A DNA stretch of 64,000 bases from a virus. Its lineage: Duplodnaviria; Heunggongvirae; Uroviricota; Caudoviricetes. The position numbers and the translations under genes are program-made. Positions 5,906-63,962 of this stretch are shown in pieces (position 1 is the first letter of the stretch; every line of letters begins with the position of its first letter). The notes beneath the pieces are model-generated. The model saw only the letters and a program-made list of their open reading frames with translations. It made no database searches and was not told the DNA's origin. Location of the stretch: positions 30,452 to 94,451 of the IMG/VR virus record IMGVR_UViG_3300025898_000004; one strand, written 5' to 3'.

Positions 5906-5935
5906 ACCCTACCCCATACAACCCGGGGATGTCAA
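5906..5935 (-). promoter_or_regulatory. conserved promoter class (TTGACA-TCCCCGGGTTGTATGGGG-TAGGGT)
   Basis: Reverse complement reads ttgaca, 18-nt spacer, tagggt. Confidence 0.5.
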
Positions 5936-6939: not shown

Positions 6940-6978
6940 AACCGCGCCCGGGGTTAACCGGGCGCGGTTGGGGTTTTT
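6940..6978. terminator. hairpin aaccgcgcccgg/ccgggcgcggtt followed by GGGGTTTTT
   Basis: Seen directly; 12-bp stem plus T-run; located 3' of minus gene 6992..7357 and at the end of an AT-rich noncoding stretch. Confidence 0.6.
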
Positions 6979-6991
6979 CCGGGGCCGGGAA

Positions 6992-7357
6992 TCAGTCACC
7001 CAGCTTCCAGCTCCTGACCTTGGCCGGTGGAACCCATCCTTCGCTCCTGCGCCGGAGCTTGCTCTTCTGGACGAACTTCTCCTGCTCCTCCGGGTGCATG
7101 GACTCCCATTCCTTGCCCATGGCCCGGATGCACGCTGGCTTCTTGCAGGTGATCGCGTCGTCGGCGATCTTGGCGTTGCAGTTGCCGCACCGGTTTTTCT
7201 TGCTGCCGAACTTCGCGCGTACGGCGTCGGCGCTCTTGCCCCGGAGCGTTTGGCTTTCCGAGGTGGTGGTGGCCCGGTTGACCTTGTCCACCACGTTGGC
7301 GACCTTGTCCATGCCATTGTTGATTTTGTTGATGGCTGCCTTGGTCCTGTTGAACAT
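6992..7357 (-). CDS. hypothetical protein with Cys4 cluster (CGNC...CKKPAC), 121 aa
   Basis: ORF track; RBS 'ggaaagg' 5 nt before ATG; promoter 7391..7419 upstream. Confidence 0.55.
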   Translation of the reverse strand: MFNRTKAAINKINNGMDKVANVVDKVNRATTTSESQTLRGKSADAVRAKFGSKKNRCGNCNAKIADDAITCKKPACIRAMGKEWESMHPEEQEKFVQKSKLRRRSEGWVPPAKVRSWKLGD

Positions 7358-7390
7358 GTCAACCTTTCCGGTTAGGGTCTGATGGAGAGG

Positions 7391-7419
7391 ACTCTACCCG
7401 ACCCCGCCCGGGGTGTCAA
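7391..7419 (-). promoter_or_regulatory. conserved promoter class (TTGACA-CCCCGGGCGGGGTCGGG-TAGAGT)
   Basis: Reverse complement reads ttgaca + 17 + tagagt. Confidence 0.55.
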
Positions 7420-7428
7420 CTCCTTGAA

Positions 7429-7650
7429 TCAGGGCACGAACGGCGGGGGGACCTCGCTCAGCTCCCGGCGCAGGCCACGGGGTGGCTCAGTCGACAACAA
7501 CGACCGGTCGAACAGTCCCAGCATGTCCAGGACCATGCCCGCGTCCGGCCCCTTGCCACAGTGCCGGACGACGGACTTGGCCGCCGCGCGCCGTTTGCCG
7601 TGCTCGTGTTCCGCCATGGATCCGACGGGATCGCGAGGGTCGTAGGTCAT
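7429..7650 (-). CDS. hypothetical protein (73 aa)
   Basis: ORF track; RBS 'aaagga' before ATG; promoter 7675..7701 upstream. Confidence 0.4.
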   Translation of the reverse strand: MTYDPRDPVGSMAEHEHGKRRAAAKSVVRHCGKGPDAGMVLDMLGLFDRSLLSTEPPRGLRRELSEVPPPFVP

Positions 7651-7674
7651 GAGTTTCCTTTCGTCGAAAGGGGC

Positions 7675-7701
7675 AGTCTAACCGAAGATGTATGATTGAT
7701 C
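7675..7701 (-). promoter_or_regulatory. leftward promoter (TTGATC-17-TAGACT) of a divergent pair
   Basis: Reverse complement reads ttgatc + 17 + tagact; mirrors the rightward promoter 7729..7757. Confidence 0.5.
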
Positions 7702-7728
7702 AACTCTTGGTTACGGATCGGCTGATAG

Positions 7729-7757
7729 TTGACTAATCAAACCTTGGCGGTTAGACT
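7729..7757 (+). promoter_or_regulatory. rightward promoter (TTGACT-17-TAGACT); predicted transcription start coincides with ATG 7764
   Basis: ttgact 7729-7734, 17-nt spacer, tagact 7752-7757; the two -10 regions (agtctaaccg / cggttagact) are inverted copies. Confidence 0.55.
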
Positions 7758-7763
7758 CCTTCT

Positions 7764-8429
7764 ATGACGATGATCATGGAAGAGAGGGATCGAATGACCG
7801 AACCCACCACACCATCACACTGGACAACCGACGTGGTCGAACGCCTGGACCTCATCCGCGCCGGCCACTACACACTGCCACAAGCCGCCGAGTACATCGG
7901 CCTGTCCGAAGCCACCGTACGGGACCTGCTGTCCCGCCCGGTGATCACCGCCACACACAACATGCTGGCTCCGATCAGCCGCCCGGCCATGCGCCTCGGT
8001 GGCGAACCCATCTACACCCGCCGCCAGCTGGACGAAGTCAACACCCGACGTGCGGCCACCCGGCGCTTGCGCTCCAGTGAGCTGGACAAACTGACGTTCG
8101 AGGAAGCCGAACGGCAACACCTCAGGTCGTACGCGGAGATGGCGGAACTGTTCAAGTTCCATGAGAACACGCTCCGGAAGTGGGGTGGCGCGCACGATGA
8201 CTTCCCCGTGGCCACGGCCAGTCGGGAACATCCGGGCGGCTACCCCGGTACCCCGACAGTCGTGTTTGACGCCGTGGAAGTGCTCCGGTGGCTGATCATT
8301 CACGACAAGGTCAAGGCGGAGGATTTCGAGGTGAACGGCCGGGTGGTCGTGTGCCTCATTCCGGACGACTCCGAAGAGGACGAAGACGGGGAACTCGAAG
8401 AGATCGAACAGGAAACCCTGGTTCCCTGA
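7764..8429 (+). CDS. helix-turn-helix DNA-binding protein (MerR/excisionase-like HTH 'LPQAAEYIGLSEATVRDLLS'), acidic C-terminal tail; possible switch regulator
   Basis: ORF track; HTH pattern; ATG 7764 would be leaderless, alternative ATG 7794 has RBS 'gagaggga'. Confidence 0.6.
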   Translation: MTMIMEERDRMTEPTTPSHWTTDVVERLDLIRAGHYTLPQAAEYIGLSEATVRDLLSRPVITATHNMLAPISRPAMRLGGEPIYTRRQLDEVNTRRAATRRLRSSELDKLTFEEAERQHLRSYAEMAELFKFHENTLRKWGGAHDDFPVATASREHPGGYPGTPTVVFDAVEVLRWLIIHDKVKAEDFEVNGRVVVCLIPDDSEEDEDGELEEIEQETLVP

Positions 8430-8517: not shown

Positions 8518-8694
8518 ATGGAAAACCCCGTCAAGGGAACCGTCACCGAGTACCACCACGCACAGGTGATGATCCAAGGTGTACACATCTACATCGGCGA
8601 AAACATGTCCCTGGTTGGACGTGACCAAATCGACATGCTTTACTTGGATGGTCCACACCAGGGTGAACATGTCACTACCTACCGGGTTCGCTGA
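8518..8694 (+). CDS. hypothetical small protein (58 aa)
   Basis: Internal ATG of ORF 8470..8694 with 'ggagacg' RBS; moderate GC3; weak. Confidence 0.3.
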   Translation: MENPVKGTVTEYHHAQVMIQGVHIYIGENMSLVGRDQIDMLYLDGPHQGEHVTTYRVR

Positions 8695-8706
8695 CCCGAT
8701 ACGAAG

Positions 8707-8735
8707 AAAGCCCCGCGCCAGCAACGCGGGGCTTT
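8707..8735. terminator. hairpin aaagccccgcg/cgcggggcttt + T-rich tail (bidirectional)
   Basis: Seen directly between convergent genes. Confidence 0.7.
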
Positions 8736-8747
8736 CTGCTGTTCACA

Positions 8748-9527
8748 CTACCGCATGAGTGTGAACACAAACGCGCCAGCCACCACCGCCCCTGTGCCCA
8801 GCGACAAGCGACCCAGCACCAATTCCGCGCGGCTGTTCGCCTCCGTGTCGAACCGCAGGAACCTCGGCGTGCCCACCATCCGCCACACCTGGCCCCGGAT
8901 CGGCACCGGGAACCACACCGGGCATCCCTGGGTGGTCATGCAGTCCCCGATCATGTGCGTGACGCACCCGGCGGCCACGGCGACGCCGAACCACCGCGCG
9001 GTCAGCTCCGGCGGGGATCCGGCCCACAGGAACAGCGTGAGCACCCCGGCGCACCAGCCAGCCGTGAACAGTGTCAGGAACGGGTGCCGGTAGGCCCATT
9101 TGCCGGCCAGGGCGCGTACGGCGTAGGTGCCGAACACGAACAGCATGCCGCCGACGGCCCAGAGCCAGAACAGGTGGATCAGCCACCAGGTGAGCACGCC
9201 CGTGCCGGCCGCGAACAGGGCGGTGTGGGTGATGCCCCGGTGGCCGCCGTCGCGGTCGCGGTCCCGTTTCGCACGGGTGAGGGAGTAGAGCGTGCCGGAT
9301 AGGCCGTGAACGGCTTTGGACACGATGGTGGAGGCGCGGCCGAAGCTGTGTGCCACGGTGGCGTCCGGGTGATCGATGTCGGGGAACACGGCCGCGCCGA
9401 TGACGAGTCCGGTGACGGCGACGCCAAGGCTGAGCGGGAGGGGTGCGCCGGTCAGGGGTGCGCCGAAGGCGGCCAGGGTGATTCCGGCGGGTACGCCTTG
9501 GCGCGCGTGGGTTTTGCCCATGCACAT
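8748..9527 (-). CDS. membrane-bound metal-dependent hydrolase, YdjM/DUF457-like (His-rich motifs, several TM helices)
   Basis: ORF 8748..9605; ATG 9527 (MCMGK...) has RBS 'gaagaggag'; motifs 'GITHT', 'HMIGD' and TM segments resemble the LexA-regulon YdjM family (recalled). Confidence 0.55.
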   Translation of the reverse strand: MCMGKTHARQGVPAGITLAAFGAPLTGAPLPLSLGVAVTGLVIGAAVFPDIDHPDATVAHSFGRASTIVSKAVHGLSGTLYSLTRAKRDRDRDGGHRGITHTALFAAGTGVLTWWLIHLFWLWAVGGMLFVFGTYAVRALAGKWAYRHPFLTLFTAGWCAGVLTLFLWAGSPPELTARWFGVAVAAGCVTHMIGDCMTTQGCPVWFPVPIRGQVWRMVGTPRFLRFDTEANSRAELVLGRLSLGTGAVVAGAFVFTLMR

Positions 9528-9558
9528 GGTGTTGACTCCTCTTCGTGGTTGCATGACT

Positions 9559-9588
9559 ACTCTACCAAACAGTTGACCAACCAAGCAA
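9559..9588 (-). promoter_or_regulatory. promoter (TTGCTT-18-TAGAGT) for the hydrolase gene
   Basis: Reverse complement reading. Confidence 0.4.
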
Positions 9589-9601
9589 GTTAGGTTAAGG
9601 T
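9574..9601 (+). promoter_or_regulatory. promoter (TTGACC-16-TAAGGT) giving a leaderless transcript starting at ATG 9608
   Basis: Seen directly; -10 ends 7 nt before the ATG. Confidence 0.45.
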
Positions 9602-9607
9602 TCAACC

Positions 9608-9805
9608 ATGGACACCAAACACAAAGACCTCAAGAAGGGAATGGTCATCCTCACCGAAAAGGGATGGCGCACCGTGAAAGAAGTCCCGGTCGCGTGGCTC
9701 GCCGGCACCTTGCTGGTTACTTTCACCGACGGCACATCATCCATCCAGAGGCCCAGTTACCGGTGGGTTCGTCGCATGAACTTCCCGCCTCCCGTGAGGA
9801 GTTGA
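9608..9805 (+). CDS. hypothetical protein (65 aa), probably leaderless
   Basis: ORF track; no SD; promoter immediately upstream. Confidence 0.45.
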   Translation: MDTKHKDLKKGMVILTEKGWRTVKEVPVAWLAGTLLVTFTDGTSSIQRPSYRWVRRMNFPPPVRS

Positions 9806-12151: not shown

Positions 12152-14185
12152 TTACCCAGCGTTGACAAGCTCCTCGTTTGGCAACGTCCAGTTACCGCGC
12201 TTGGTGGCCCGTGCTCCCATCTCCGTCAACTTCGCGTACGTCCACGATCGTGCCCGCGTGGCCGATTTCGCCAGGTCCCGGACATGCGCCCCGTCCGGCC
12301 CGGCCGCCCGCAGGGCGGACACCAGCGCCTCAATCGCGTCCGACTCGGACAGCTTCGGCGGATCCAACTCCGCCATCAGCGCGTCCCGGGCCGCCTGCGC
12401 CATGTCCTGCTGTCCCGCCGTCAATGACTCCTGGTGCCGGCGCACCAGCTCCGCCAGCGGGACATCCGGCCCGTCCATCCACGTCGGTTCCGGGACATCC
12501 TGTCCCGCCTGTCCCACGTCATCCTGTCCCACGTTGTCCCGCCCTTGTCCCGCGTTGTCCCGGCTGTCCCGGGACATGTCCCGGGTGTCCGGGACAGTGT
12601 CCTGGTGTCCCGGGACAGGGTTGCCGTCATCGTCGAGCGGGACAACATGCGGCCGGTCCGCGTACAGCTGGGACACCGCTGTGGCCGCCGCCGACGACGT
12701 CTCGTCCAGTTCGCACGTGCGCCCTTGACGCAATTTGACGAGAGTGGACACGGTGGAGTCCGACACGTATTGAATACGAATCGGCATCCGATCGATCGTT
12801 TCGGCGTCCTGGTAGTAGCACGTTCCCGGCCGCGATTGCGGAATGAGGTTCGCGCCCACCTTCCCGTCCCGGCGTGTGCCGAACACGAAGTACTCCCCGT
12901 CTTCGCCTTGCATCCGGAAACAGAACCGCTGATCCAATTGTTCACGAACAAGGTTCGAGCCGTACGCCAACAGCGTCGGATACTGGGTGGCCTCCACGAT
13001 CTCGACACCGAGGGCGCGGCCCTTCTGAATGATCCGCTCCAACATTTCTAGTTGCTTGCGGTTCATCGCGCCGTTGAACGAGTGGCACTCGTCCACGACA
13101 ACCGTCAACACCGGGAATTCCGGTGTCATCGGCCAGCGGCGAACTTTCAGGACTTCCGCACAATACTTCGCGCGGGCGTCCACCACCGCTTCGAGCGCTT
13201 CGAGCATTTCCAGCGATTCGTCAAAGGTGGTGACGCACCAGTCCATGGCGTTGCGCCACGGTCCCAGTTCCATTCCGCCTTTGAGGTCGATTCCCCACAC
13301 CACGGCATTGCGGCAACACACCCGCGTGCCCACGATGATGTTGACCAGACCAGACTTGCCGGAGCCCTTCGCGCCGGCGAGCATCACGGACCGGGAGCCG
13401 TACTCCTTACTGTCTGTGAGGGTCATGGTCTTCAGAACCCCGTCCTCCCGGTAACCGAGAGTGATCGGGTCGCAGGCGTCCAGCTCCCGGACGTACCACT
13501 CCCCGTTGATCTCCTCGGCGGGAATCTCCCAGTTGATCCCTTTCTCATGCGGGTCCGTCACGAACGCCTTGAACGTGACCGAATTCGAGTCCCGGCCGTT
13601 CCTTTCCATGCGGAGCGTGCCAGTCGGCAACGCCAATGCGCCTTCGATACGCTCCCGCTTCTCCAGGATCTCCGCCACTGTGTAGTCCCCGGCGGGCCAC
13701 ACCAGACGGCCCTCGAAATTGCCGCCACCGTGCGCCCGAATAGCGACCGTGCGCACGGTGTCTATGCGCAACTTCCGTGCCAGCGCCGGCCACCGCTCCA
13801 CCGTTTCCGTGAGGGTGACCCGTGTCCGTCGCCGATTGTTCCGCCACCACGGGATACCCATGGCCAGGCCAGCGCCGGCCGTGATTGGCGCGGTCCACGA
13901 AAAGTGCGACCAGCCAAGTTCATGCAACGTGAGCACGACCGAACTGGACGCGGCCAACACGCTGAACAGGTACAGCTTGTTCCGGTCGTCGCCGCCGTAC
14001 GCGGAGATCCACGACCCGGCCGCCGTCGCGGCCCCGGCGACCCCGAGGGCCACCGGGGCAAACGGCGCGTACTGCGAGATCTCACCCAGTGCGACAGTGC
14101 CGGCGGTGACGAACATAGGCGTCAACTCCGACCGGCGACGGCGCATGGTGCCGAACACTGCTCCCGTCACCTTTGTGACGCTCAT
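12152..14185 (-). CDS. FtsK/SpoIIIE/TraB-like membrane DNA translocase (N-terminal TM helices, Walker A GAKGSGKS, Walker B VVVDECH, C-terminal winged-helix-like domain; repetitive RD/GQ-rich linker encoded by the TGTCCCG repeats)
   Basis: ORF track (677 aa); motif inspection; RBS 'aaggaaagggg' before ATG. Confidence 0.75.
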   Translation of the reverse strand: MSVTKVTGAVFGTMRRRRSELTPMFVTAGTVALGEISQYAPFAPVALGVAGAATAAGSWISAYGGDDRNKLYLFSVLAASSSVVLTLHELGWSHFSWTAPITAGAGLAMGIPWWRNNRRRTRVTLTETVERWPALARKLRIDTVRTVAIRAHGGGNFEGRLVWPAGDYTVAEILEKRERIEGALALPTGTLRMERNGRDSNSVTFKAFVTDPHEKGINWEIPAEEINGEWYVRELDACDPITLGYREDGVLKTMTLTDSKEYGSRSVMLAGAKGSGKSGLVNIIVGTRVCCRNAVVWGIDLKGGMELGPWRNAMDWCVTTFDESLEMLEALEAVVDARAKYCAEVLKVRRWPMTPEFPVLTVVVDECHSFNGAMNRKQLEMLERIIQKGRALGVEIVEATQYPTLLAYGSNLVREQLDQRFCFRMQGEDGEYFVFGTRRDGKVGANLIPQSRPGTCYYQDAETIDRMPIRIQYVSDSTVSTLVKLRQGRTCELDETSSAAATAVSQLYADRPHVVPLDDDGNPVPGHQDTVPDTRDMSRDSRDNAGQGRDNVGQDDVGQAGQDVPEPTWMDGPDVPLAELVRRHQESLTAGQQDMAQAARDALMAELDPPKLSESDAIEALVSALRAAGPDGAHVRDLAKSATRARSWTYAKLTEMGARATKRGNWTLPNEELVNAG

Positions 14186-14200
14186 GTCCGTCCCCTTTCC

Positions 14201-15148
14201 TTACGCGTTCGGTACGGCAATTCCGCTGCGGTACAGCGACAGCAACGGCCCATACACGGTTTCGATGGTGTTCACAATCGCGGTCCACTGGGAGGCTTCC
14301 GCGTCGGCCAAATCAACCAACGGCTTCAGCCCGTGAACCACCAGCGGATCCATGTTCAGGCGACCAATCAAGGTCTTCTGAAGCTCGTGCAACGCGTCCG
14401 CCTTGTCGCTGGCCGCCGCCGCCAGTCCGGCGACGAGATCCAGAATTTCCTGCGTGCTTCGGGGGATCGCTTCGCCTACCCCGGTCCATGCTCGTGCGAC
14501 GGCGTGCGCCGTGCTTGTGCTGTCGGACATGACTGCACGTCCCCTTTCTTCGATCCTGCGTCGGTGGCGTTCCACGTAGGTGGATGCCTTGTGGTGCCCG
14601 GCGGTGGTTGGTGTGGCCCGGTGCCGGCCGGCGGGTGCGCCGGGTGTGGGCCGGACCTTCACCTTCCCCCTGTGGCGGGATTTGTAGCTGTGGTGCAACG
14701 TGGCTGGAGTGTGCGGTTTCGGTTCCCGTTTCTCCCCGTTGTGTTTCTCGATGTAATGCAAATTCAGGGCCATGGTGCTGGTGAACGTCTCGCCGCAAAT
14801 GCAGTGAACGGCGTGTTTGACGCGCCATTCGCCGCGTTTACGTTCTATCTTCGGCACCTTGTGGGGTGCCCATTTTGGCGCGCGGCTTTTCTGGACGTGT
14901 CGGCGTACATGGGGTGCGACGGCGCGGGTTCCTTCGATCGCGCCGACGGTGGCCCCGGCCGCCGCGTAGCCGGCGATTTTCACTGCGCCCAACGTGATGT
15001 GCAGCACTGGCCGCAACAGCTTGTGTTTGCGGGGAACACGGTCCGCCAGTCCGGACCGGTACCACTTGGTTTTTCGGACGTGACTGGCGAACCGCTTTCC
15101 CATGGTGGTTGACGTGTCGGTGGTGCGTTGCGCCTTGCCTTTCGACAT
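14201..15148 (-). CDS. basic protein with C2H2-like zinc finger (CICGETFTSTMALNLHYIEKH), 315 aa
   Basis: ORF track; RBS 'ggagaggag' before ATG; operonic with the translocase. Confidence 0.55.
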   Translation of the reverse strand: MSKGKAQRTTDTSTTMGKRFASHVRKTKWYRSGLADRVPRKHKLLRPVLHITLGAVKIAGYAAAGATVGAIEGTRAVAPHVRRHVQKSRAPKWAPHKVPKIERKRGEWRVKHAVHCICGETFTSTMALNLHYIEKHNGEKREPKPHTPATLHHSYKSRHRGKVKVRPTPGAPAGRHRATPTTAGHHKASTYVERHRRRIEERGRAVMSDSTSTAHAVARAWTGVGEAIPRSTQEILDLVAGLAAAASDKADALHELQKTLIGRLNMDPLVVHGLKPLVDLADAEASQWTAIVNTIETVYGPLLSLYRSGIAVPNA

Positions 15149-15151
15149 CGC

Positions 15152-15931
15152 TTACTCCTCTCCGACGGCTCGCTGTTCGAGTCCGGCGCGGATGCGGCCC
15201 AGCGTCTTGCGGGTGGTGTCTTTCTTGGCGTCCAGGTGAACGCCAACGTGGGTGTGCACCGTGGCCGGCGTGGCGTCCGGGTTGTCGTCCAGGTACCGGG
15301 TGATGGCGGCCCGGAGGTCCATGTCCGGGGTGAGCCAGTCCGGCGCGGGCGCGGTCATCTCGGTGACGCTGGCCAACGGTTCCGGGGCGGCCGGCGACTC
15401 TGGTGCCGGCACGGGGGCTGGAATCTGAGCCGGAGTGGCCTTCGGCTTCGGCGCTGGTGTGGCGGTCGCGGTCTTCGTGGCGCGTGCCTTGCGGATGGTG
15501 GTGAGGCCACGGCGCATGACCAGCATGTGAATGACGGCCGCCAGCGTTGCCGGCGGAATCGCGCCGACCAGCAGCACGACACCCCAGACGGGGGCGAGTT
15601 TCTCGACGTTGAGGAACAGGTCCAGTCCGTTGGCTCCCAGGGACAGGCTGATGGCGGTGAGTGCCAGTCGCCGGGAGTAGCGGCGGGTGTCGTTGTCGGT
15701 CGTGCGGGACAGCCAGATTCGGGTAGAGGTGTATGCCACCGCGTCCAAACAGACGGGCCATACCCAGGACAGCCATCCGTTGAATCCGCACATGTCAGCG
15801 AGGTCACGTGAGGAGTTGAACGACAGCACGGCCGCGCCCCCCACGATGAGGCTGGACATGGCGTGAATGTCCAGCTCAGAGAACCAGCGTGAGCCTTTTT
15901 CGGGCAGGCTGGTTCGACCTTCCGCGTTCAC
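15152..15931 (-). CDS. DUF2637-like membrane protein (Spd-like, as found beside TraB in actinomycete conjugative elements), C-terminal Pro/Ala-rich linker
   Basis: ORF track; GTG 15931 with AAGGAG 6 nt upstream; hydrophobic N-terminal half with 'WLSWVWPVCLDAVAY'. Confidence 0.5.
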   Translation of the reverse strand: MNAEGRTSLPEKGSRWFSELDIHAMSSLIVGGAAVLSFNSSRDLADMCGFNGWLSWVWPVCLDAVAYTSTRIWLSRTTDNDTRRYSRRLALTAISLSLGANGLDLFLNVEKLAPVWGVVLLVGAIPPATLAAVIHMLVMRRGLTTIRKARATKTATATPAPKPKATPAQIPAPVPAPESPAAPEPLASVTEMTAPAPDWLTPDMDLRAAITRYLDDNPDATPATVHTHVGVHLDAKKDTTRKTLGRIRAGLEQRAVGEE

Positions 15932-16041
15932 TGTCAACTCCTTTGCTCCGTTTGCGGGTAGACAACCTCCTTGGTTATGGGAGAGGATATGCCCGCGCGG
16001 GGGAGTCCCGCAAGACAGGTTGGATTTACCAGGGAGTGGAA

Positions 16042-16242
16042 ATGAAGGCCGACCAGCTGGCCGCCCTGTTGAAGAGGGCTATTAGCGAAGGCAAATATTC
16101 TTCGGGGGACAAGTTGCCCAGCGAATCCCAGCTCAGCCGCACACATGGGATGTCCGTACACACCGTGCGGGAGGCCCTGTCTCAGCTGGTGGGCCAGAAT
16201 CTCGTGGTGAAGCGCAAGGCGTTCGGCACGTACGTTAAGTGA
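16042..16242 (+). CDS. GntR-family winged-HTH domain protein (67 aa; 'LPSESQLSRTHGMSVHTVREALSQL'), divergent from the translocase operon
   Basis: HTH signature read from ORF 15889..16242; ATG 16042 with 'agggag' RBS. Confidence 0.55.
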   Translation: MKADQLAALLKRAISEGKYSSGDKLPSESQLSRTHGMSVHTVREALSQLVGQNLVVKRKAFGTYVK

Positions 16243-16506: not shown

Positions 16507-16543
16507 TCATCCTCCTTGGTTGACGACACCGATACTACAGGAG

Positions 16544-42402: not shown

Positions 42403-42795
42403 TCAGACGGTCGCCAGTTCCGGTTCCGGCGCGTGCGCTTCCTGGAACCGGGCCAGCAGCTCCGCCGGGATCCGGCCACGCTCGCTGACCTTCTCGCCCT
42501 GGCTGCGCGCCCACTCGCGGACGGCCTGGTTCTGCTCCCGGCTGAGGTTCGTGCCGGTTGCGCGCTTCTCGCCGGACCGGGTGGCCCGCGCGGTTCCGGT
42601 GCTCTTTGGAGTCCTCGGGGTCTTCACGCGCTGTGCGCTCTCCACGAACGCTTCCAGCCGTCCGCGCAGTTCGGCTGCGTTGGCCTTCGTCAGGTCGATC
42701 GTGTACTCGATCCCGTCCAGACCGAAGTAAACCGATTCGTCGGCCGGCTCTCCGGTGATGTCGTCGACCAGTTCCACGACTGTCTTGCTCGCCAT
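42403..42795 (-). CDS. lsr2: Lsr2-like nucleoid-associated protein (N-terminal 'TVVELVDDITGEPADESVYFGLDGIEYTIDL', C-terminal 'RGRIPAELLARFQEA' DNA-binding motif)
   Basis: Recalled close similarity to mycobacterial Lsr2 in both domains; ATG 42795 (MASKTV) in ORF 42403..42831. Confidence 0.8.
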   Translation of the reverse strand: MASKTVVELVDDITGEPADESVYFGLDGIEYTIDLTKANAAELRGRLEAFVESAQRVKTPRTPKSTGTARATRSGEKRATGTNLSREQNQAVREWARSQGEKVSERGRIPAELLARFQEAHAPEPELATV

Positions 42796-42834
42796 CTTCC
42801 TTGACCTCCTTGAGTCGTTATTACGGAGCATATC

Positions 42835-58196: not shown

Positions 58197-58724
58197 CTAA
58201 CACTTCCATGAATGATCGTTTACTACCCTTGAAACAGTTGTACGATCAACTCCGTATAGTACGGCGATGTCTTTAACTTTCATTCCCGACTGACGCTTGG
58301 ATTTTATATCCTGAACTATTTCGTTTGAAAGTTTAGATCGTCCGTTTCCTTCTCCGCGAAGCTTAGAGGAATCTTGCCGCATGAAATGTTGATCCCCATA
58401 AGCGTGGCGATTACGCTCAATAGAATCTCTCTTGTTATCTTTGGAACTACCCCACTCCAGATGGTCAGGATTCATACAAGGAGGGGTGTCACGCTTGTGT
58501 CGCGCGTTAGATCCTAGCCTGCCTGTAACGGCCTTCAGTACAGCCCGATTGCCGCGCCAGTTTTTGCCGTCAATGAACAGCTTCGGATACCCGTCCTTAT
58601 CTTTACCTTTTTGCCAAATCCAACAGCCTGTAGACGGATCAATGGAGCACTCTTGTCGAACATCATCGACAAGAGTGCTCCATTGCCACCTAGGCGGTCG
58701 CGGTCTCCCACGGCCAAACGCCAC
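58197..58724 (-). CDS. HNH homing endonuclease (motifs 'DGYPKL', 'CMNPDHLEWG') with C-terminal HTH; lies in a low-GC islet
   Basis: Motifs read directly; local GC clearly lower (58200-58450). Confidence 0.75.
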   Translation of the reverse strand: MAFGRGRPRPPRWQWSTLVDDVRQECSIDPSTGCWIWQKGKDKDGYPKLFIDGKNWRGNRAVLKAVTGRLGSNARHKRDTPPCMNPDHLEWGSSKDNKRDSIERNRHAYGDQHFMRQDSSKLRGEGNGRSKLSNEIVQDIKSKRQSGMKVKDIAVLYGVDRTTVSRVVNDHSWKC

Positions 58725-60456
58725 GCTGCCCCATTTCGATCAACGGAACCAACTTGAAAGTAGAATCTCCCAATCCGCCCAGCTCGTGACGGTTCGTGCC
58801 GGCCGTCATCGCACCCGCGTACCCAGCCAGGTTGAACGAGTACACCGGCACCTCCGCCGGAACGTAGCGGTTCACCGCGTCCGTCCCGCCGTTCCAGCCG
58901 TTCCCCATCAGTTGCATGTCGGAGAACACGAACACCCGCGTGTGCTCCCCGCGCCGGAACGTCTTGGCCAGAGCCTGCGCCAAATCCGTCCCGTGCCCCA
59001 CCGAACCGGCCCGGTTCGTGAACCGCGCAACCTGTTCGATCAGCGCCGCACCGGTCTTGATCTCGTGCGTGAATGTGCCCGTAGCCCACCCGGCCAGGTC
59101 CACGCGACCCCGGTTCCGGAACGCCAACGCCACACCGAACAGAGCCGCCGCGTCCACACACGACACCTGGGACTTCCCAGACATCGGCGCGGACATCGAC
59201 GCCGACGTGTCGACCAGGATCAGCGTGCGCCCGTCCAGCTCCGGAATGTTCTGCGTCGACAGGGTCAGCGCCGTGTTCAGCGCCGAACCCCACCGCAACG
59301 ACCCGGCCGCCATGCGGTACGCGGACAGGAACCGGAACGGGAACTGCTTGCACCGGGCAACCTGGTCCGGGTCCGCCAGCTTTGCCGCGATCACGGCCGC
59401 AACCTTGTCTGACACGCCGGCCTTGTCGAAGTTCGCCAAGTTCCGCAGAAGCGCCATGTAGCCCATGGACGGGATCACGGCCTCCCACGCCTGCGCCGTC
59501 ATGCCCTGGCCGTCCGACAGCCACCCGGACAGCCACTCCCACGTCGCGCCGGCCGCGTCCAAGCGGGGCGTGAGCACGCCAGCCGACAAGGCGTTACGCA
59601 GCCAGGTGCGCCGCTCTGGCACCGGAACAGCCTCCAGCGACGCGCGGTAGCGCACCATCGGGAGGGGAGCGCCCTGTCCGTCGTTCGGCACCGCGTCCGC
59701 CCGGCCGTGCCGGCGGTCCAACAGCCACCGGTAGAGCGCGTTACGGTTGCCCGTGTTCGCGTCGTCCGGGTGGACGATGTCAACGACGTCCCCGAACCGG
59801 ACGCCGTACGCGTTGGTGTCGTACTTCAGGGCGGAGAACTCCGTGTACAGGCGCGGTAGGGTGTCCCCGATGGCGCGCTTCATGCACATGGGGAGCGCCC
59901 GGCCGAACCGCGACCGCCAGTAGGCGATCATCTCGCCCGGTTCGTCGGCGCGCAGCAGCGCCGCCCGCAACAGGTCCCGGTTGCCGCCCTCGATGCCGGC
60001 CTTCAGGCGCGCGTGCACGGCCTCGCAGGCGATGACGATCGGCGCGGTACGCATGTTGCCCTTGCGCCGCAACCAGTCCACGAACGGCAACAGCCACTCC
60101 AAACCGGTGTCCGGATTCGCGGCGTGCTCGCGGCTGGCCACGGTGTGCGCCGCCGTCGCCATGAACGCCGTCGCCACGGCCTTGGACAGGGTCCGGCTTG
60201 CGCTGTCGGTCGCGATGGCGGCCGCCAGGTCCCGCACACGCTGTACGGTCGCGTCGCCAGTCTCGTAGAACTTGTTCTCCGCGATGAACCCGGCCGTGGC
60301 TGTCAGGAACAGCTGGCCCTGGTCCGTGCGGGCAAACGACGGCGCACCCTCGAACGTGCGCGCTGACGCGCGCCGGTCCACGACAATCGGCGACAATCCG
60401 CCTGCGCCGACACCGACACGACCGAACGTGTCCGGCAACTTGTTGAACTTGGACAT
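58690..60456 (-). CDS. rsr: Ro60 orthologue (Rsr): TROVE domain plus vWA domain with MIDAS motif 'DTSASM'
   Basis: Domain pattern read from ORF 58690..60594; ATG 60456 (MSKFNKLPDTFG) has RBS 'aaccaaggagtgtggagt'. Confidence 0.75.
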   Translation of the reverse strand: MSKFNKLPDTFGRVGVGAGGLSPIVVDRRASARTFEGAPSFARTDQGQLFLTATAGFIAENKFYETGDATVQRVRDLAAAIATDSASRTLSKAVATAFMATAAHTVASREHAANPDTGLEWLLPFVDWLRRKGNMRTAPIVIACEAVHARLKAGIEGGNRDLLRAALLRADEPGEMIAYWRSRFGRALPMCMKRAIGDTLPRLYTEFSALKYDTNAYGVRFGDVVDIVHPDDANTGNRNALYRWLLDRRHGRADAVPNDGQGAPLPMVRYRASLEAVPVPERRTWLRNALSAGVLTPRLDAAGATWEWLSGWLSDGQGMTAQAWEAVIPSMGYMALLRNLANFDKAGVSDKVAAVIAAKLADPDQVARCKQFPFRFLSAYRMAAGSLRWGSALNTALTLSTQNIPELDGRTLILVDTSASMSAPMSGKSQVSCVDAAALFGVALAFRNRGRVDLAGWATGTFTHEIKTGAALIEQVARFTNRAGSVGHGTDLAQALAKTFRRGEHTRVFVFSDMQLMGNGWNGGTDAVNRYVPAEVPVYSFNLAGYAGAMTAGTNRHELGGLGDSTFKLVPLIEMGQRGVWPWETATA

Positions 60457-60480
60457 ACTCCACACTCCTTGGTTTGAGCA

Positions 60481-60525
60481 ACAAAAAAGGAGATGCCCAC
60501 ATGCCGGCTGATACTCGGCATGTGA
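60481..60525 (-). terminator. hairpin cacatgccg/cggcatgtg followed on the minus strand by CTCCTTTTTTGTTG, immediately upstream of the rsr RBS
   Basis: Seen directly. Confidence 0.55.
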
Positions 60526-60700
60526 ACACCTCCCGTGTGTGAACGTTTCCCCCGCAGGGGACCGACGCGCCGGGTGCGGACATCTTCCGGACAACGTAGC
60601 TCACTCGGTTACGCGCGCCGCGCCCAGGAATCGAACCTGATCTAGTGGGTTTGGAATCCACTGTCCGCACACAGCGGCCGCGACTTAAGTTGGCTCCCAC
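60481..60700 (-). ncRNA. candidate Y RNA (YrlA-like): tRNA-like domain (60616..60684; canonical T-arm tcagg-TTCGATT-cctgg, Trp-like anticodon loop TTCCAAA, imperfect acceptor and D arm) followed by about 90 nt and a terminator
   Basis: Element does not fold as a canonical tRNA; adjacent to Ro60 gene; bacterial Y RNAs with tRNA-like modules beside rsr are established (recalled). Confidence 0.45.
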
Positions 60701-60830
60701 TTCGTTGGTGTCCTTACGCACGAACCGGCAGGAAGCCTACATCCATCCGCGTGCGTAAAGTGACGGCTTCGGGGACTTGATCCCGTCACGTGCTACTAGA
60801 GGCGATGCCCCGGAGTCCCAGCACCTTCCG

Positions 60831-60901
60831 AAGCGGACACGGGATTCGAACCCGTATGGACAGCTTTGCAGGCTGCTACCTAGCCATTCGGTCAGTCCGC
60901 C
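60831..60901 (-). tRNA. tRNA-Cys (GCA)
   Basis: Manual cloverleaf fold: acceptor ggcggac/gtccgct, anticodon arm gcagc-ctGCAaa-gctgt, T-arm acggg-TTCGAAT-cccgt; 71 nt, no CCA. Confidence 0.75.
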
Positions 60902-61019
60902 ATGACGGCCGTGCCCTATGCTGCGGGACACGGACGCCAACTCCCTCACCGTGGATGGTGAGAATGGAGAGCACAACTTTTCAGGAACCTGCACCGGTGT
61001 CCGTAGGTGCTGTGCTCAG

Positions 61020-61094
61020 TAGTCCTACCCGGATTCGAACCGGGAACCTCCACCACCTCAAGGTGACGCCTCTGCCATGTTGGGCTATAGGACC
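61020..61094 (-). tRNA. tRNA-Leu (GAG), atypical class-I-like form with 5-nt variable loop, A73
   Basis: Manual fold: ggtccta|ta|gccc-aacatggcag-aggc|g|tcacc-ttGAGgt-ggtgg|aggtt|cccgg-TTCGAAT-ccggg|taggact|a. Confidence 0.65.
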
Positions 61095-61104
61095 AGGGGA
61101 CCGC

Positions 61105-61344
61105 TCACGCGGCCGTGTCGACTGTGGCGCGGGTACGCCACCGCCGGTAGTTCAGTACTCCCACCGCGACCATACCGAGGTTCATCACAAATCCCCAGTA
61201 TCCGGTTGCGATGCCGAACGCCACCATGCCCAGTTGCACGGCGACCAGCACAACCCACCCGCTGATCTTCCCGCGCCCCACGAGCCACGCGGACAAGATG
61301 TTGAACGGGCCGAACAAGAACGTGGACGCTAACGCTACGTTCAT
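61105..61344 (-). CDS. small hydrophobic protein (79 aa, 2 TM) embedded in the tRNA array
   Basis: ORF track; strong RBS 'caccaaggagatggt' before ATG. Confidence 0.5.
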   Translation of the reverse strand: MNVALASTFLFGPFNILSAWLVGRGKISGWVVLVAVQLGMVAFGIATGYWGFVMNLGMVAVGVLNYRRWRTRATVDTAA

Positions 61345-61364
61345 ACCATCTCCTTGGTGAGGAG

Positions 61365-61440
61365 TAGTCCTACTGGGATTCGAACCCAGAACCTCCCGGA
61401 CCTGAACCGGACGCCTCTGCCAAAGTTGGGCTATAGGACC
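61365..61440 (-). tRNA. tRNA-Leu (CAG), atypical class-I-like form with 5-nt variable loop, A73
   Basis: Manual fold: same architecture as 61020..61094; anticodon arm tccgg-ttCAGgt-ccggg. Confidence 0.65.
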
Positions 61441-61540
61441 GTGACGTGAGCGCTACCACAACGCTCACGTTTCATACACAACACCGTTCCGTGCTGTCAT
61501 CGCGAACCGTCAGAGGCACCCTGATTAACCCCGACAGTCG

Positions 61541-61611
61541 TACCGCACGAGGGATTCGAACCCCCACGGGAGTGGTTTACAGCCACGCCGGCACAACCAA
61601 CGCTGTACGGT
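61541..61611 (-). tRNA. tRNA-Tyr (GTA) candidate with short D loop and 5-nt variable loop
   Basis: T-arm ggggg-TTCGAAT-ccctc, acceptor accgtac/gtgcggt, anticodon arm cgtgg-ctGTAaa-ccact; D arm fold poor. Confidence 0.5.
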
Positions 61612-61746
61612 ATGAAAGCGGCCTCATCCCTAGCCGCCACGGTGGACCCACAACAGCAGATTCACGAATGAACCCACTTTCCTCGCTTCCCACTTCCGGT
61701 CTGCCGCAACACCTCGGAAAGGCTCGGCCTTTTACAACGACAAACG

Positions 61747-61820
61747 TAGCCCCTACGGGATTCGAACCCGCGATATCCTGGATGAAAGCCAGGCGGCTTA
61801 GGCCACTTGCCTAAGGGGCT
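61747..61820 (-). tRNA. tRNA-Glu (TTC)
   Basis: Manual fold: agcccct|ta|ggca-agtggccta-agcc|g|cctgg-ctTTCat-ccagg|atatc|gcggg-TTCGAAT-cccgt|aggggct|a. Confidence 0.75.
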
Positions 61821-61832
61821 TTAATTACTGCG

Positions 61833-61906
61833 TAGCCGCGCCGGGATTCGAACCCGGAACCTTCCCCTTTTGAGGGGGACGCCTCTGCCTATTGGGCTAA
61901 GCGGCC
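61833..61906 (-). tRNA. tRNA-Leu (CAA), atypical class-I-like form with 5-nt variable loop, A73
   Basis: Manual fold: ggccgct|ta|gccc-aataggcag-aggc|g|tcccc-ctCAAaa-gggga|aggtt|ccggg-TTCGAAT-cccgg|cgcggct|a (7:66 mismatch). Confidence 0.65.
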
Positions 61907-62046
61907 CAGATGGTGACTTTCTGTCGTAGGGGTTTCACAGCACTCGGACGGTTACGACAGTAAACCGCTACCCTTGCGTTGCCTGCGTCCCTTTGCGTCT
62001 AGCGTCCAGGCGATCAAGCTGGACGGTCACCCACTAGCCGATAACG

Positions 62047-62119
62047 TAGCGCATACGGGGCTCGAACCCGTGACCTCCCGGCTGAGAACCGGGTGTTCCG
62101 CCAATTGAACTAATGCGCC
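62047..62119 (-). tRNA. tRNA-Glu (CTC)
   Basis: Manual fold: ggcgcat|ta|gttc-aattggcg-gaac|a|cccgg-ttCTCag-ccggg|aggtc|acggg-TTCGAGC-cccgt|atgcgct|a. Confidence 0.7.
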
Positions 62120-62120
62120 A

Positions 62121-62197
62121 TGGCACCCTTAGAGAGATTCGAACTCCCGACAACCCGGATCCGTAATCCGGTGCTCTATCCACTGAGCTATAAGGGC
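62121..62197 (-). tRNA. tRNA-Arg (ACG) with encoded CCA
   Basis: Manual fold: gccctta|ta|gctc-agtggata-gagc|a|ccgga-ttACGga-tccgg|gttgtc|gggag-TTCGAAT-ctctc|taagggt|g|cca. Confidence 0.7.
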
Positions 62198-62198
62198 T

Positions 62199-62275
62199 TG
62201 GGTTGACCGACGGGACTCGAACCCGCATAAACCACACTCACAATGTGGGGCCTTGTCCATTAGGCTACAGTCAAC
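62199..62275 (-). tRNA. tRNA-His (GTG) with encoded G-1, C73 and CCA
   Basis: Manual fold: g|ttgactg|ta|gcct-aatggaca-aggc|c|ccaca-ttGTGag-tgtgg|tttat|gcggg-TTCGAGT-cccgt|cggtcaa|c|cca; 1-nt spacers to both neighbouring tRNAs. Confidence 0.75.
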
Positions 62276-62276
62276 G

Positions 62277-62350
62277 TCCCACCCCCGGGAATCGAACCCG
62301 GAACCTTCGGTTTCGGAAACCGATGCTCTGTCCTGTTGAGCTAAAGCGGG
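62277..62350 (-). tRNA. tRNA-Arg (CCG)
   Basis: Manual fold: cccgctt|ta|gctc-aacaggaca-gagc|a|tcggt-ttCCGaa-accga|aggtt|ccggg-TTCGATT-cccgg|gggtggg|a; three G-U pairs in acceptor. Confidence 0.6.
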
Positions 62351-62528
62351 TTACCGCTCATTGCGGTAATGTTCCTCGAACACAGGCTGCGATACCCGGG
62401 CAAGCTTCAAATACAACTCCCTGTGACCCGGATTCGCATTATCCCAATTCAAATCCACGTGATATCCGTGGATAATGCTAAACATTGCTCTCGCGGCTTC
62501 GATGATCAAAGGAGAATCTTCGGTCACG
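62351..62528. other. low-GC spacer inside the tRNA array carrying two perfect hairpins (ttaccgc/gcggtaa 62351-62369; atccacg/cgtggat 62451-62471); no tRNA fold
   Basis: Seen directly; minus-strand 44-codon ORF has low GC3 and no SD, so probably noncoding. Confidence 0.4.
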
Positions 62529-62600
62529 TCCCCCTCCGGGGAGTCGAACCCCGACCCTACCGTTTAGGAAACGGTCGCTCCTCCGTTGCGCTTGAGGGGG
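62529..62600 (-). tRNA. tRNA-Arg (CCT)
   Basis: Manual fold: ccccctc|aa|gcgc-aacggag-gagc|g|accgt-ttCCTaa-acggt|agggt|cgggg-TTCGACT-ccccg|gaggggg|a. Confidence 0.7.
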
Positions 62601-62682
62601 ATTAGGTGCCCCGTCCGGTGCGGCAAACACCGAAACGGGGCGATGTTCACGAATCCCTAGCCAGGGCTCTTTGATGTGAACG

Positions 62683-62767
62683 CGGAAGCTAAGGGATTCG
62701 AACCCTTGGGACACGAGGCCCACGTCATTAGCAGTGACGCCCAATCGGCCAGCTCTGGCAAGCTTCC
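62683..62767 (-). tRNA. tRNA-Ser (GCT), class II with 15-nt variable arm
   Basis: Manual fold: ggaagct|tg|cca-gagctggccgat-tgg|g|cgtca-ctGCTaa-tgacg|tgggcctcgtgtccc|aaggg-TTCGAAT-ccctt|agcttcc|g. Confidence 0.75.
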
Positions 62768-63056
62768 TCATCGCGTGTGGAGCCCGGGCGACCGGTTACT
62801 TTCCCGCCAGGCGCAGCGATAGCCACCGCCGCACCATTCCGCAAGTGTTGTATCCCCCTCTTTTGGGGACCCGGAACTCATTCACACGAAGCAAGATCGG
62901 GGCAGGCCCGTACGCGACCCGTTTCAGCTATCCCGTGGCCGTCTAGAACAGCCTTGGGAATCAACGCCTATCCGTGCTTATCATCCAGCCACATCGAAAC
63001 GGTCCCTTGGGTATCGCGGGACACTGGGCCTTGACGATTTATGACGGTCCCCAACG
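62768..63056 (-). other. 289-nt tRNA-free gap inside the tRNA array with internal repeats (gggaccgt x2) and stem-loops; candidate ncRNA or degenerate tRNA
   Basis: No TTCGA T-loop anywhere in the interval; no convincing ORF (ORF-track hits overlap tRNAs). Confidence 0.3.
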
Positions 63057-63137
63057 CAGAGGGTAAAGGAATCGAACCCTTAGGTGTCACCCTAGCCCGG
63101 ACTTCGAAACCGGTTTGCCGCCACGGCGCTACCCTCC
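63057..63137 (-). tRNA. tRNA-Ser (CGA), class II with 15-nt variable arm
   Basis: Manual fold: ggagggt|ag|...|ccggt-ttCGAag-tccgg|gctagggtgacacct|aaggg-TTCGATT-ccttt|accctct|g; D arm short. Confidence 0.65.
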
Positions 63138-63207
63138 GAGACGCGCCCCCTCTAGGTCGCCACCGAAGAGAGGGGACGCTCACCCGCCGACACGGCAACG
63201 GGTGTAG

Positions 63208-63278
63208 AGCGGATGACGGGAATCGAACCCGCGTCTTTAGTTTGGAAGACTATGACTCTGCCATTGAGCTACATCCGC
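63208..63278 (-). tRNA. tRNA-Gly (TCC), U73
   Basis: Manual fold: gcggatg|ta|gctc-aatggca-gagt|c|atagt-ctTCCaa-actaa|agac|gcggg-TTCGATT-cccgt|catccgc|t. Confidence 0.75.
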
Positions 63279-63284
63279 ATTGCG

Positions 63285-63527
63285 TTACTCTGGATATTCA
63301 ACAGCTCCCGGAATGAGACTGCCCAACAGGCGAAACTGATCTGGGTAGGCCCGCGCCGCCGCCTGCGACATGATCATTCGTTGGAGCACGTGAATGTGAT
63401 GACAGGACTCGGTCAGGTCATCCATTCGCGTCGGACCGTCCGCCACGATCCGGCACATGTTCATGTGCACCTGACCAAGCATCACGGCCGTTTCTTTTTC
63501 GAGTTGCGTCAACAGTTCCGAGTCCAC
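63285..63527 (-). CDS. hypothetical protein (80 aa, GTG start) embedded in the tRNA array
   Basis: ORF track; moderately high GC3; weak RBS. Confidence 0.3.
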   Translation of the reverse strand: MDSELLTQLEKETAVMLGQVHMNMCRIVADGPTRMDDLTESCHHIHVLQRMIMSQAAARAYPDQFRLLGSLIPGAVEYPE

Positions 63528-63573
63528 GCCACCCCGAATGCTAGTAGCAATATTGTCTTGCGGCGAAACAACG

Positions 63574-63646
63574 CTGACCTAACTGGACTCGAACCAGCAT
63601 CCCCCAACTTAACAGGATGGTGCTCTGCCAATTGAGCTATAGGTCA
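63574..63646 (-). tRNA. tRNA-Asn (GTT), G73
   Basis: Manual fold: tgaccta|ta|gctc-aattggca-gagc|a|ccatc-ctGTTaa-gttgg|gggat|gctgg-TTCGAGT-ccagt|taggtca|g (one T-T mismatch in anticodon stem). Confidence 0.65.
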
Positions 63647-63886
63647 TTAGGCCCGTCCCCCAGGTCTTTCACCCGGAATGCCACAGTCGCGAACCATGAG
63701 CATTGCTTTAATATGCTGGGACGGATGGAAGCCCGATAGGTGGATCTCCGCCACAGCCTCACCAGTGGTGAGCGGTATCGTGTTTCATCACCATTGTGGG
63801 TACCGCACTTGGGGTTGAACTCCGGCACTCGGGCCAACATGCCGGATGGTATAAACCCGGAACGCGAGGAACCGGGCGGGAAAACG

Positions 63887-63962
63887 TGGCAGCGGTGGGA
63901 TTTGAACCCACGATCTCCGACTTATGAGGACGGCGAGGACGACCGAACTCCTCTACGCTGCT
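63887..63962 (-). tRNA. tRNA with CAT anticodon (Met, or Ile2 if lysidinylated); 1:72 A-C mismatch
   Basis: Manual fold: agcagcg|ta|gagg-agttcggtcgt-cctc|g|ccgtc-ctCATaa-gtcgg|agatc|gtggg-TTCAAAT-cccac|cgctgcc|a. Confidence 0.6.

Follow-up and report, generated by a model that had tools for sequence, protein, structure and literature searches.

In bacteriophage lambda, the promoters PRM and PR diverge, and the cI mRNA made from PRM could start at its AUG. The locus described here lies in a 64,000-nucleotide (nt) stretch of an uncultured Caudoviricetes genome (IMG/VR record IMGVR_UViG_3300025898_000004, record positions 30,452-94,451; this whole stretch is referred to as the window) and resembles lambda in that two divergent promoters, termed PL (leftward) and PR (rightward), adjoin a helix-turn-helix (HTH) gene whose mRNA could start at an AUG. 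Unlike in lambda, there is no tripartite shared operator and no HTH-bearing equivalent of Cro, an integrase was not found in the roughly 81 kb scanned, the protein differs from cI in both fold and domains, and the genome features point to a virulent phage. Moreover, leaderless mRNAs are common in actinobacteria, so the analogy with PRM has little weight.

A second parallel is offered by the Cluster O mycobacteriophages (the Corndog group), whose divergent SigA-like promoters PL1 and PR2 are predicted to give leaderless transcripts (PMC4351075). In both systems a single intergenic region towards the left end of the genome holds the divergent, SigA-like promoters, a predicted +1 falls on the first base of a start codon, and similar promoter copies occur elsewhere in the genome (PMC4351075). 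They differ in that the leaderless geometry is found here at PR only—the leader of PL measures about 18 nt and includes a Shine-Dalgarno sequence ahead of its first gene, which encodes 73 amino acids (aa)—and in that the PR transcript would offer, 30 nt downstream, a further in-frame start with a strong Shine-Dalgarno sequence. A third system, the Cluster A repressor (L5 gp71, TipsytheTRex), is a monomeric two-domain protein that reads oriented, asymmetric operator/stoperator sites (PMC9283540). The window likewise holds many short asymmetric sites that point in the direction of transcription and overlap a TTGACA −35, together with a protein of about 200 aa whose two DNA-binding domains make it a candidate monomeric reader. 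In contrast to Cluster A, however, 10 of the 12 sites are full promoters with their own −10 and not elongation blocks, the phage is probably not temperate, and the link between protein and sites is conjectural. Isolated phages in general have no detectable sequence relation to the window.

Set against these systems, the PL/PR module is ordinary early-gene control and no new kind of genetic switch. Divergent, predicted-leaderless promoters are already known (PMC4351075); what the locus adds is an example in an uncultured lineage, with two modest departures, the possible dual-mode initiation of translation and an uncharacterised family of tandem winged-helix proteins. We read the locus as an early-gene control module used by the host polymerase, with phage promoters as the most plausible targets of its HTH protein in a temporal programme—a reading to which we assign a probability of roughly 0.6.

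Architecture of the divergent promoters

The features of the module are as follows:

7675-7680, minus strand: PL −10 hexamer TAGACT, read from the sequence
7698-7703, minus strand: PL −35 hexamer TTGATC, with a 17-nt spacer, within the 8-bp palindrome TTGATCAA (7696-7703)
7729-7734, plus strand: PR −35 hexamer TTGACT; AATCA comes next, as it does in PL; from the sequence and a consensus scan
7752-7757, plus strand: PR −10 hexamer TAGACT, whose TAG doubles as an in-frame stop upstream of the open reading frame (ORF)
7675-7757: whole mirror-image element, with 31-nt arms (7675-7705 and 7727-7757) matched at 24 of 31 positions (77%)
7764-7766, plus strand: ATG at the predicted PR +1, candidate leaderless start of a 221-aa isoform
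7780-7796, plus strand: Shine-Dalgarno sequence (aagagagggatc, purine-rich) and in-frame ATG 7794, predicted start of a 211-aa form
7764-8429, plus strand: HTH gene, predicted tandem MerR/Xis-type winged-helix protein of 221 or 211 aa

Both promoters have what is expected of the sigma-70/SigA (HrdB) type, namely a −35 near TTGACA, a spacer of 16-18 nt (17 nt in PR, as in PL) and a TANNNT −10; in the consensus scan PR was detected, and PL fell one match short of the threshold (8/12). The initial annotation had described the two as inverted promoters with identical TAGACT hexamers and 17-nt spacers, which the sequence bears out: the decamers agtctaaccg (7675-7684) and cggttagact (7748-7757) are exact inverted copies with no other copy in the window. 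The inverted copies are thus real, but the extent of the mirror arrangement had been understated, as the arms reach 31 nt around a 21-nt centre that varies among relatives, and the 27-bp core reported between the promoters measures 25 bp between the two −35 hexamers (7704-7728). Across the 64 kb of the window, only two loci carry an inverted repeat this good (31 nt, 24 or more matches, loop no longer than 60 nt), and 20 Markov shuffles produced none; the mirror symmetry therefore exceeds chance. A second mirrored pair (repeat I2, 7645-7665/7779-7799) spans the Shine-Dalgarno sequence, the ATG and the ACC of both divergent genes.

Several shorter motifs were considered as special elements and rejected. 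The heptamer CGGTTAG is not enriched as an operator would be (4 copies against 4.5 expected), although three copies cluster at the PL/PR locus; GTTGANNAATCA shows no genome-wide enrichment; and GATC is over-represented across the window, which leaves its clustering at PL/PR unexceptional. CGGTTAG also occurs in a weak, rightward promoter-like site (TTGAAC-17-TAGGGT, 7350-7378, plus strand) that is antisense to the 73-aa gene and may be due to chance.

Conservation among metagenomic relatives

The window and six metagenomic relatives form a close set of seven sequences, in which the HTH coding DNA of the relatives is 74-87% identical to that of the window. Over their footprints, PL is identical at 26-28 of 29 positions and PR at 21-28 of 29 in the six relatives, so that both promoters are better conserved than the coding DNA—which argues that they are under constraint. 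GATCAA of the PL −35 is invariant in all seven sequences; the PR −35 reads TTGAC(T/C) in all seven (TTGACG in the more distant L016), and its −10 is TAGACT, TAGAGT or TATGGT in the relatives, with TANNNT kept throughout. Between the promoters, sequence and length both vary (25 bp in the window, 16 bp in L018 and L021), which speaks against a conserved operator between them. At the level of sequence, this comparison confirms PL and PR as real, conserved, divergent promoters of the sigma-70/SigA type.

The pairing of a small gene on the left with the HTH gene on the right is kept in two clades, with 48-51% identity between the HTH proteins (the distant clade being L016 and L017) and 53-60% between the small proteins. 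In the L016/L017 clade PL and PR overlap, each −35 lying inside the spacer of the other, so that polymerase could hold only one promoter at a time. These overlapping promoters (2751-2790 in L016, 2867-2905 in L017) are arranged around the palindrome GTTGACT-N7-AGTCAAC; in L016, an additional PR-like promoter adjoins the HTH gene.

Start codon of the HTH gene

The proposal that PR transcription begins exactly at ATG 7764, giving a leaderless mRNA, holds up in its geometry and less well in what it implies for translation. ATG 7764 lies 7 nt past the last T of the PR −10, and +1 would be A7764 if that T is taken as −7; promoters of the sigma-70/SigA type are expected to start 6-8 nt past the −10. 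Because the in-frame TAG of the −10 hexamer shuts the ORF upstream, 7764 is the most upstream possible start. The arrangement TANNNT-N6-ATG is present in all seven close sequences, the ATG being identical at 3/3 positions in six of six relatives despite a variable N6 (1-5 of the 6 nt identical), and a 3-nt in-frame indel in L018 and L021 leaves the frame of the HTH gene intact. That the ATG is invariant behind six variable nucleotides marks the leaderless geometry as real; it is also exact and conserved.

In the window, the full geometry occurs at 7764 and 9608 only. The latter belongs to a second promoter of exact leaderless geometry (9556-9610), with TTGACC (9573-9578), a 17-nt spacer, TAAGGT (9596-9601) and 6 nt ahead of ATG 9608, which opens a 65-aa gene lacking a Shine-Dalgarno sequence; the arrangement is kept in L018, L021 and L022. 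This promoter overlaps a possible leftward promoter, identified by eye (TTGCTT-18-TAGAGT), for a YdjM-like gene at 8748-9527.

Translation from ATG 7794 is nevertheless the likelier mode. Among 49 starts tested, this codon has the best predicted pairing with the 16S 3' end (−17.3 kcal/mol), and a Shine-Dalgarno sequence followed by ATG or GTG is kept at its position in every relative (−8.2 to −19.1 kcal/mol). Gene callers chose the equivalent start in 13 of 15 homologues and the long form in two, and four sequences (L016, L017, L027 and L028) retain the promoter and a canonical Shine-Dalgarno leader without the +1 ATG. A leaderless mRNA is further expected to lack a Shine-Dalgarno-led alternative start, and ATG 7794 provides the HTH ORF with exactly such a start. 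Given this strong, conserved Shine-Dalgarno sequence, we take the 211-aa form as the likely conserved product; judged by the same alignments, the 221-aa leaderless isoform is a possible, clade-specific addition, and the leaderless start is probably not ancestral.

The PR mRNA might, alternatively, be translated from its 5'-terminal AUG alone, which would make the 221-aa form the sole product and ATG 7794 an internal methionine. Established mycobacterial work has it that 5'-AUG transcripts are translated, and the exact, conserved, frame-preserving geometry and the two long gene calls fit this account. Yet it leaves the strongest Shine-Dalgarno pairing of all 49 starts without a role, along with its retention in every relative, including the clades that have no +1 ATG, and we regard it as unlikely.

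A tandem winged-helix protein

Pfam HTH_17 (PF12728) scores 26.5-26.7 bits against the window protein, slightly below the gathering cut-off of 27; across the family, 27 of 50 members match at E ≤ 0.01 (best 5.4e-9), and the same Pfam entry is precomputed on most of the close homologues. Matches to PHROG 597 ('DNA binding protein') and PHROG 66 ('excisionase and transcriptional regulator') were obtained for 41 and 36 of the 50 members, respectively. An AlphaFold2 model built from 21 sequences (predicted local distance difference test, pLDDT, of 79) shows the succession beta-alpha-alpha-beta-beta-alpha twice, in residues 25-90 and 110-169, and supersedes an earlier model from 16 sequences that had a pLDDT of 61 and a poor N-terminus. 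According to the model, two MerR/Xis-type winged helices follow one another in the protein, which has neither the coiled coil nor the effector domain of MerR; this agrees with its original description as an HTH protein predicted to bind DNA. Pfam returned only HTH_17-type matches for the window protein, with none to HTH_3 or S24. BLASTP of domain 1 against domain 2 revealed no similarity, so a duplication cannot be demonstrated by sequence; a sequence search of the PDB gave noise or single-domain hints only.

This architecture sets the protein apart from MerR, BldC, Xis and AlpA of the HTH_17/MerR superfamily, as it holds two winged helices in one chain where a MerR regulator combines a winged helix with a dimerising coiled-coil helix and an effector domain. 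The promoters differ as well: MerR targets typically have operator-bearing spacers of 19-20 nt, whereas PL and PR have 17 nt and all candidate target promoters 17-18 nt.

The family is uncharacterised and, in the collections searched, restricted to metagenomes. All 15 close homologues come from metagenome-derived assemblies; megablast of the region against phages and plasmids returned zero matches, as did tblastn against isolated phages with the HTH protein and three distant family members. Among 185,579 species genomes neither the HTH family nor the portal protein has a relative, although the portal scan detects close relatives only. An exhaustive profile search delineated 64 clusters at 50% identity, nearly all of 170-260 aa, for which the isolated-phage and species-genome collections searched contain no match.

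A role in DNA handling also has to be weighed, with a protein of this fold acting as a small-terminase-like binder of a packaging site or as a recombination directionality factor. Roughly 10 kb separate the gene from those for the terminase and portal, and it is located among small early-type genes, in a block that has a promoter and terminator of its own; an integrase partner was not found; and all matches are confined to a single domain, with scores similar to those obtained against MerR regulators and BldC. Such an accessory function is, in our view, quite unlikely, and action on phage promoters remains the preferred reading.

Two promoter classes

The motif GGGRTGTCAAC (GTTGACAYCCC on the opposite strand) occurs in the window 9 times exactly and 3 times with one mismatch, where 4.1 copies would be expected. 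At ten of these 12 listed sites the motif is followed, after a spacer of 17-18 nt, by a TANNNT −10 (mostly TAGnnT) and by a gene in the same direction; a Shine-Dalgarno-like sequence precedes nine of these ten genes, in canonical form (AAGGAGG) in six, and none is seen at 5926. These class-1 sites are:

Class-1 motif starts: 1845, 2280, 3467, 4991, 5926, 7410, 10454, 53805, 56175 and 58132

The motif persists in relatives down to 48% protein identity. Judged by sequence and context, the GGGRTGTCAAC sites are the putative extended −35 of a strong class of early promoters. The class can be written (a)aRgaGTTGACAYCCC...gtcgggTAGnnT and comprises about ten near-identical early promoters; the structural block (17.8-42.3 kb) contains none. 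As for the other two sites, the copy at 16543 lacks a good −10 and sits in the spacer of an opposing promoter, and the copy at 2267, considered as a promoter-less operator, proved to be one arm of a terminator-like palindrome with 16-bp arms. This palindrome (2256-2291; GATCGGGGGATGTCAA-ACAG-TTGACATCCCCCGATC) lies between two co-directional genes, where it could form a terminator-like hairpin, and its right arm bears the −35 of the class-1 promoter P2280.

PL, PR and the promoter of the 65-aa gene (P9608, 9573-9601) have GTTGAnnAAyCA in common and lack the YCCC flank, thus forming a second class. With a shared motif of their own and no YCCC flank, they are probably regulated differently from class 1, with the HTH protein as the most plausible regulator.

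The spacers show a further regularity. Dyad symmetry is modest in the window (3.5 of 8 pairs against 2.2 in shuffled sequences) and reaches 5.75-6.0 of 8 pairs (against 2.2) in the distant relatives L027 (GCCGAGTTAACTCGGC) and L028 (AGCCTAGATAGCTAGGC); spacer dyads above the shuffled level hint at phage-specific regulators that bind there. These two IMG/VR contigs (101.7 and 128.2 kb) carry near-identical promoter sets of their own, in which the 17-nt spacer is a 16-bp palindrome, and TAGNCT-N6-ATGACC, again a leaderless geometry, is found at many of their promoters.

One candidate for such a regulator is the HTH protein itself, which could sit as a single-chain pseudo-dimer on the class-1 element—GTTGACAYCCC together with a partial CCCG-N8-CGGG dyad—and shut off or activate some ten early promoters while leaving its own promoter class exempt. 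MerR-family winged helices bind promoter spacers, and GTTGACAYCCC resembles CTTGACAKCCACC, which we take to be the L5 consensus. The excess of the 11-mer and its location in promoters at 10 of 12 sites, its retention in distant relatives, the spacer dyads and the absence of the element from PL, PR and P9608 would all suit this idea, for which the monomeric two-domain repressor of Cluster A on its asymmetric sites offers a precedent (PMC9283540). The likeness to Cluster A extends to the number and orientation of the sites along transcription; a homologue of gp71 in which an N-terminal HTH and a stoperator domain bind such sites, in contrast, was not found. Binding of the protein to the element is a conjecture, the conserved flanks could equally stem from promoter strength or copying, further DNA-binding proteins are encoded nearby, the 2267 copy is accounted for as a palindrome arm, and in L027 the promoter of the HTH gene carries that phage's own class element. 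We therefore hold the idea to be doubtful. The bolder proposal that the protein founds a new class, that of single-chain pseudo-dimeric MerR/Xis-type regulators acting on the −35/spacer element of at least ten early promoters (GTTGACAYCCC...CGGG in the window, 16-bp palindromes in the distant relatives), is improbable as it stands; if true, it would describe a virulent actinophage that times its early shut-off, lets class-2 promoters escape and obtains two isoforms by dual initiation.

Genome context and lifestyle

The genome measures about 92 kb, and contigs bearing the HTH gene span 90.9-94.5 kb. The plus strand of the window encodes the terminase, portal, structural block and endolysin; the minus strand encodes UvrD-like and DEAD-type helicases, a PD-(D/E)XK nuclease, a polymerase/primase, RNase T, SPFH, Lsr2 and a TROVE/Ro protein. 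At the right end of the window lies part of a tRNA array:

60830-63962, minus strand: 16 tRNA genes, in an array that runs past the window

The full array comprises 30 tRNAs in the sister contig L031 (4571-10515), and a scan against Rfam at the gathering threshold returned tRNAs alone. Gene tables and family scans covered about 81 of the 92 kb and matched no integrase family, in line with the original remark that the window holds none. The large tRNA array, the phage's own replication genes, the lack of an integrase over this stretch and the absence of relatives among species genomes together point to a virulent phage; we conclude that it is a large soil actinophage of a lineage without a cultured member, known from soil metagenomes only, and probably virulent rather than temperate.

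These findings bear directly on the earlier suggestion of an immunity or lysis-lysogeny switch, in which a PRM-like leaderless mRNA would encode the HTH protein as a cI-like repressor and the leftward gene would supply a Cro-like or early lytic function. Divergent promoters do adjoin an HTH gene, those of the L016/L017 clade overlap and would hence be mutually exclusive, and about 11 kb of the genome is unseen. The suggestion nevertheless fits poorly with the 30-tRNA array (16 of them in the window) of a genome of about 92 kb that has its own replication genes, with the lack of an integrase match over about 81 kb and with the lack of prophage relatives in 185,579 species genomes. The protein carries two MerR/Xis-type winged helices and no HTH_3 or S24 match, and the 73-aa product has no HTH match; PL and PR share no repeated operator beyond ordinary promoter grammar, their −35 palindromes differ in spacing, and the centre between them varies in sequence and length. 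Thus none of the lambdoid hallmarks—a cI-like repressor, a Cro-like HTH, repeated operators, integration or a prophage state—was found in the sequence scanned, and we consider a switch highly unlikely.

Transcription units and proposed course of expression

The units that flank the promoters contain these features:

6940-6969: hairpin terminator, end of the leftward unit
6992-7357, minus strand: 121-aa gene, second in the PL unit, with weak zinc-ribbon-like matches
7391-7419, minus strand: class-1 promoter GTTGACACCCC-N-TAGAGT, a GGGRTGTCAAC site inside the PL unit that would feed the 121-aa gene
7429-7650, minus strand: first PL gene, 73-aa protein, no HTH match
7657-7671: 15-bp palindrome CCTTTCGTCGAAAGG between the PL −10 and the ATG of the 73-aa gene, overlapping its Shine-Dalgarno sequence
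8518-8694, plus strand: 58-aa ORF, syntenic in all relatives
8705-8737, both strands: bidirectional intrinsic-terminator hairpin with a 13-bp stem, end of the PR unit

The small leftward genes that had been expected beyond PL are thus present as the 73-aa and 121-aa ORFs. In the 73-aa protein, the N-terminal MTYDP and the C-terminal RRELS..P.PFVP are invariant across two clades, and neither Pfam nor PHROG yielded a family match or an HTH; the C-terminal motif looks like a short docking or host-binding peptide rather than Cro. The palindrome in the PL leader was examined as an RNA hairpin and is not significant (z = −1.9). On the right, no promoter or terminator was found between the HTH gene and the 58-aa ORF, which would be co-transcribed, and the hairpin at 8705-8737 is predicted to be stable on either strand (−27 kcal/mol, z = −4.8 on the plus strand; −28.8 kcal/mol, z = −3.4 on the minus strand). 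The early region is mosaic and contains several divergent junctions, of which the whole module is one.

In the course of expression that we propose, host RNA polymerase carrying the primary sigma factor would recognise the back-to-back PL and PR. PL would give a short-leader mRNA for the 73-aa protein, probably reading on into the 121-aa gene, and PR an mRNA of about 1 kb for the tandem winged-helix protein and the 58-aa ORF, with the hairpins at 6940-6969 and 8705-8737 ending the respective units. The PR transcript would probably begin at or next to A7764 and thus present an AUG at its 5' end, followed 30 nt downstream by the in-frame, Shine-Dalgarno-led AUG. The HTH protein would then most plausibly act on phage promoters to set early-to-later timing, with no decision between lysis and lysogeny.

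Some observations tell against this account. The transcription starts of PL and PR are deduced from promoter geometry, and that of PL falls on a pyrimidine if the spacing is exactly 7 nt. In the 10-codon extension of the long isoform, the Shine-Dalgarno purines and an ATGATC motif are kept, and nothing else clearly points to constraint on the protein. The HTH protein is tied to no particular DNA site, its DNA binding and targets being predicted; a GntR protein in the window or a 71-aa HTH_17 protein just outside it could be the regulator instead. Finally, the unseen 11 kb could hold an integrase or a partition system, and the ORFs of the structural module (about 23.5-38.7 kb) lay outside the protein-family scans.

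Even so, the module offers a conserved and testable example of promoter architecture in large soil actinophages, with two promoter classes in one phage, an mRNA on which leaderless and Shine-Dalgarno initiation could both take place in the same reading frame, and an uncharacterised family of tandem winged-helix proteins. In practice it is of use for annotating uncultured actinophages—in the choice of start codons and in promoter models—and as a supply of compact, strong promoters for actinobacterial genetics.

Other features of the window

Three further loci are of note. A TROVE/Ro60-like protein with a VWA domain (58690-60594, minus strand) adjoins the tRNA array, with no Y RNA detected at the Rfam gathering threshold. 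The Lsr2-family nucleoid-associated protein (42403-42831, minus strand) has both its dimerisation and its DNA-binding domain. Lastly, an FtsK/SpoIIIE-like ATPase (12152-14185), a DUF2637 protein (15152-15937) and a 66-aa GntR-type HTH protein (16042-16242) form a trio at 12152-16242 that recalls the plasmid-transfer loci of actinomycetes, here within a phage.

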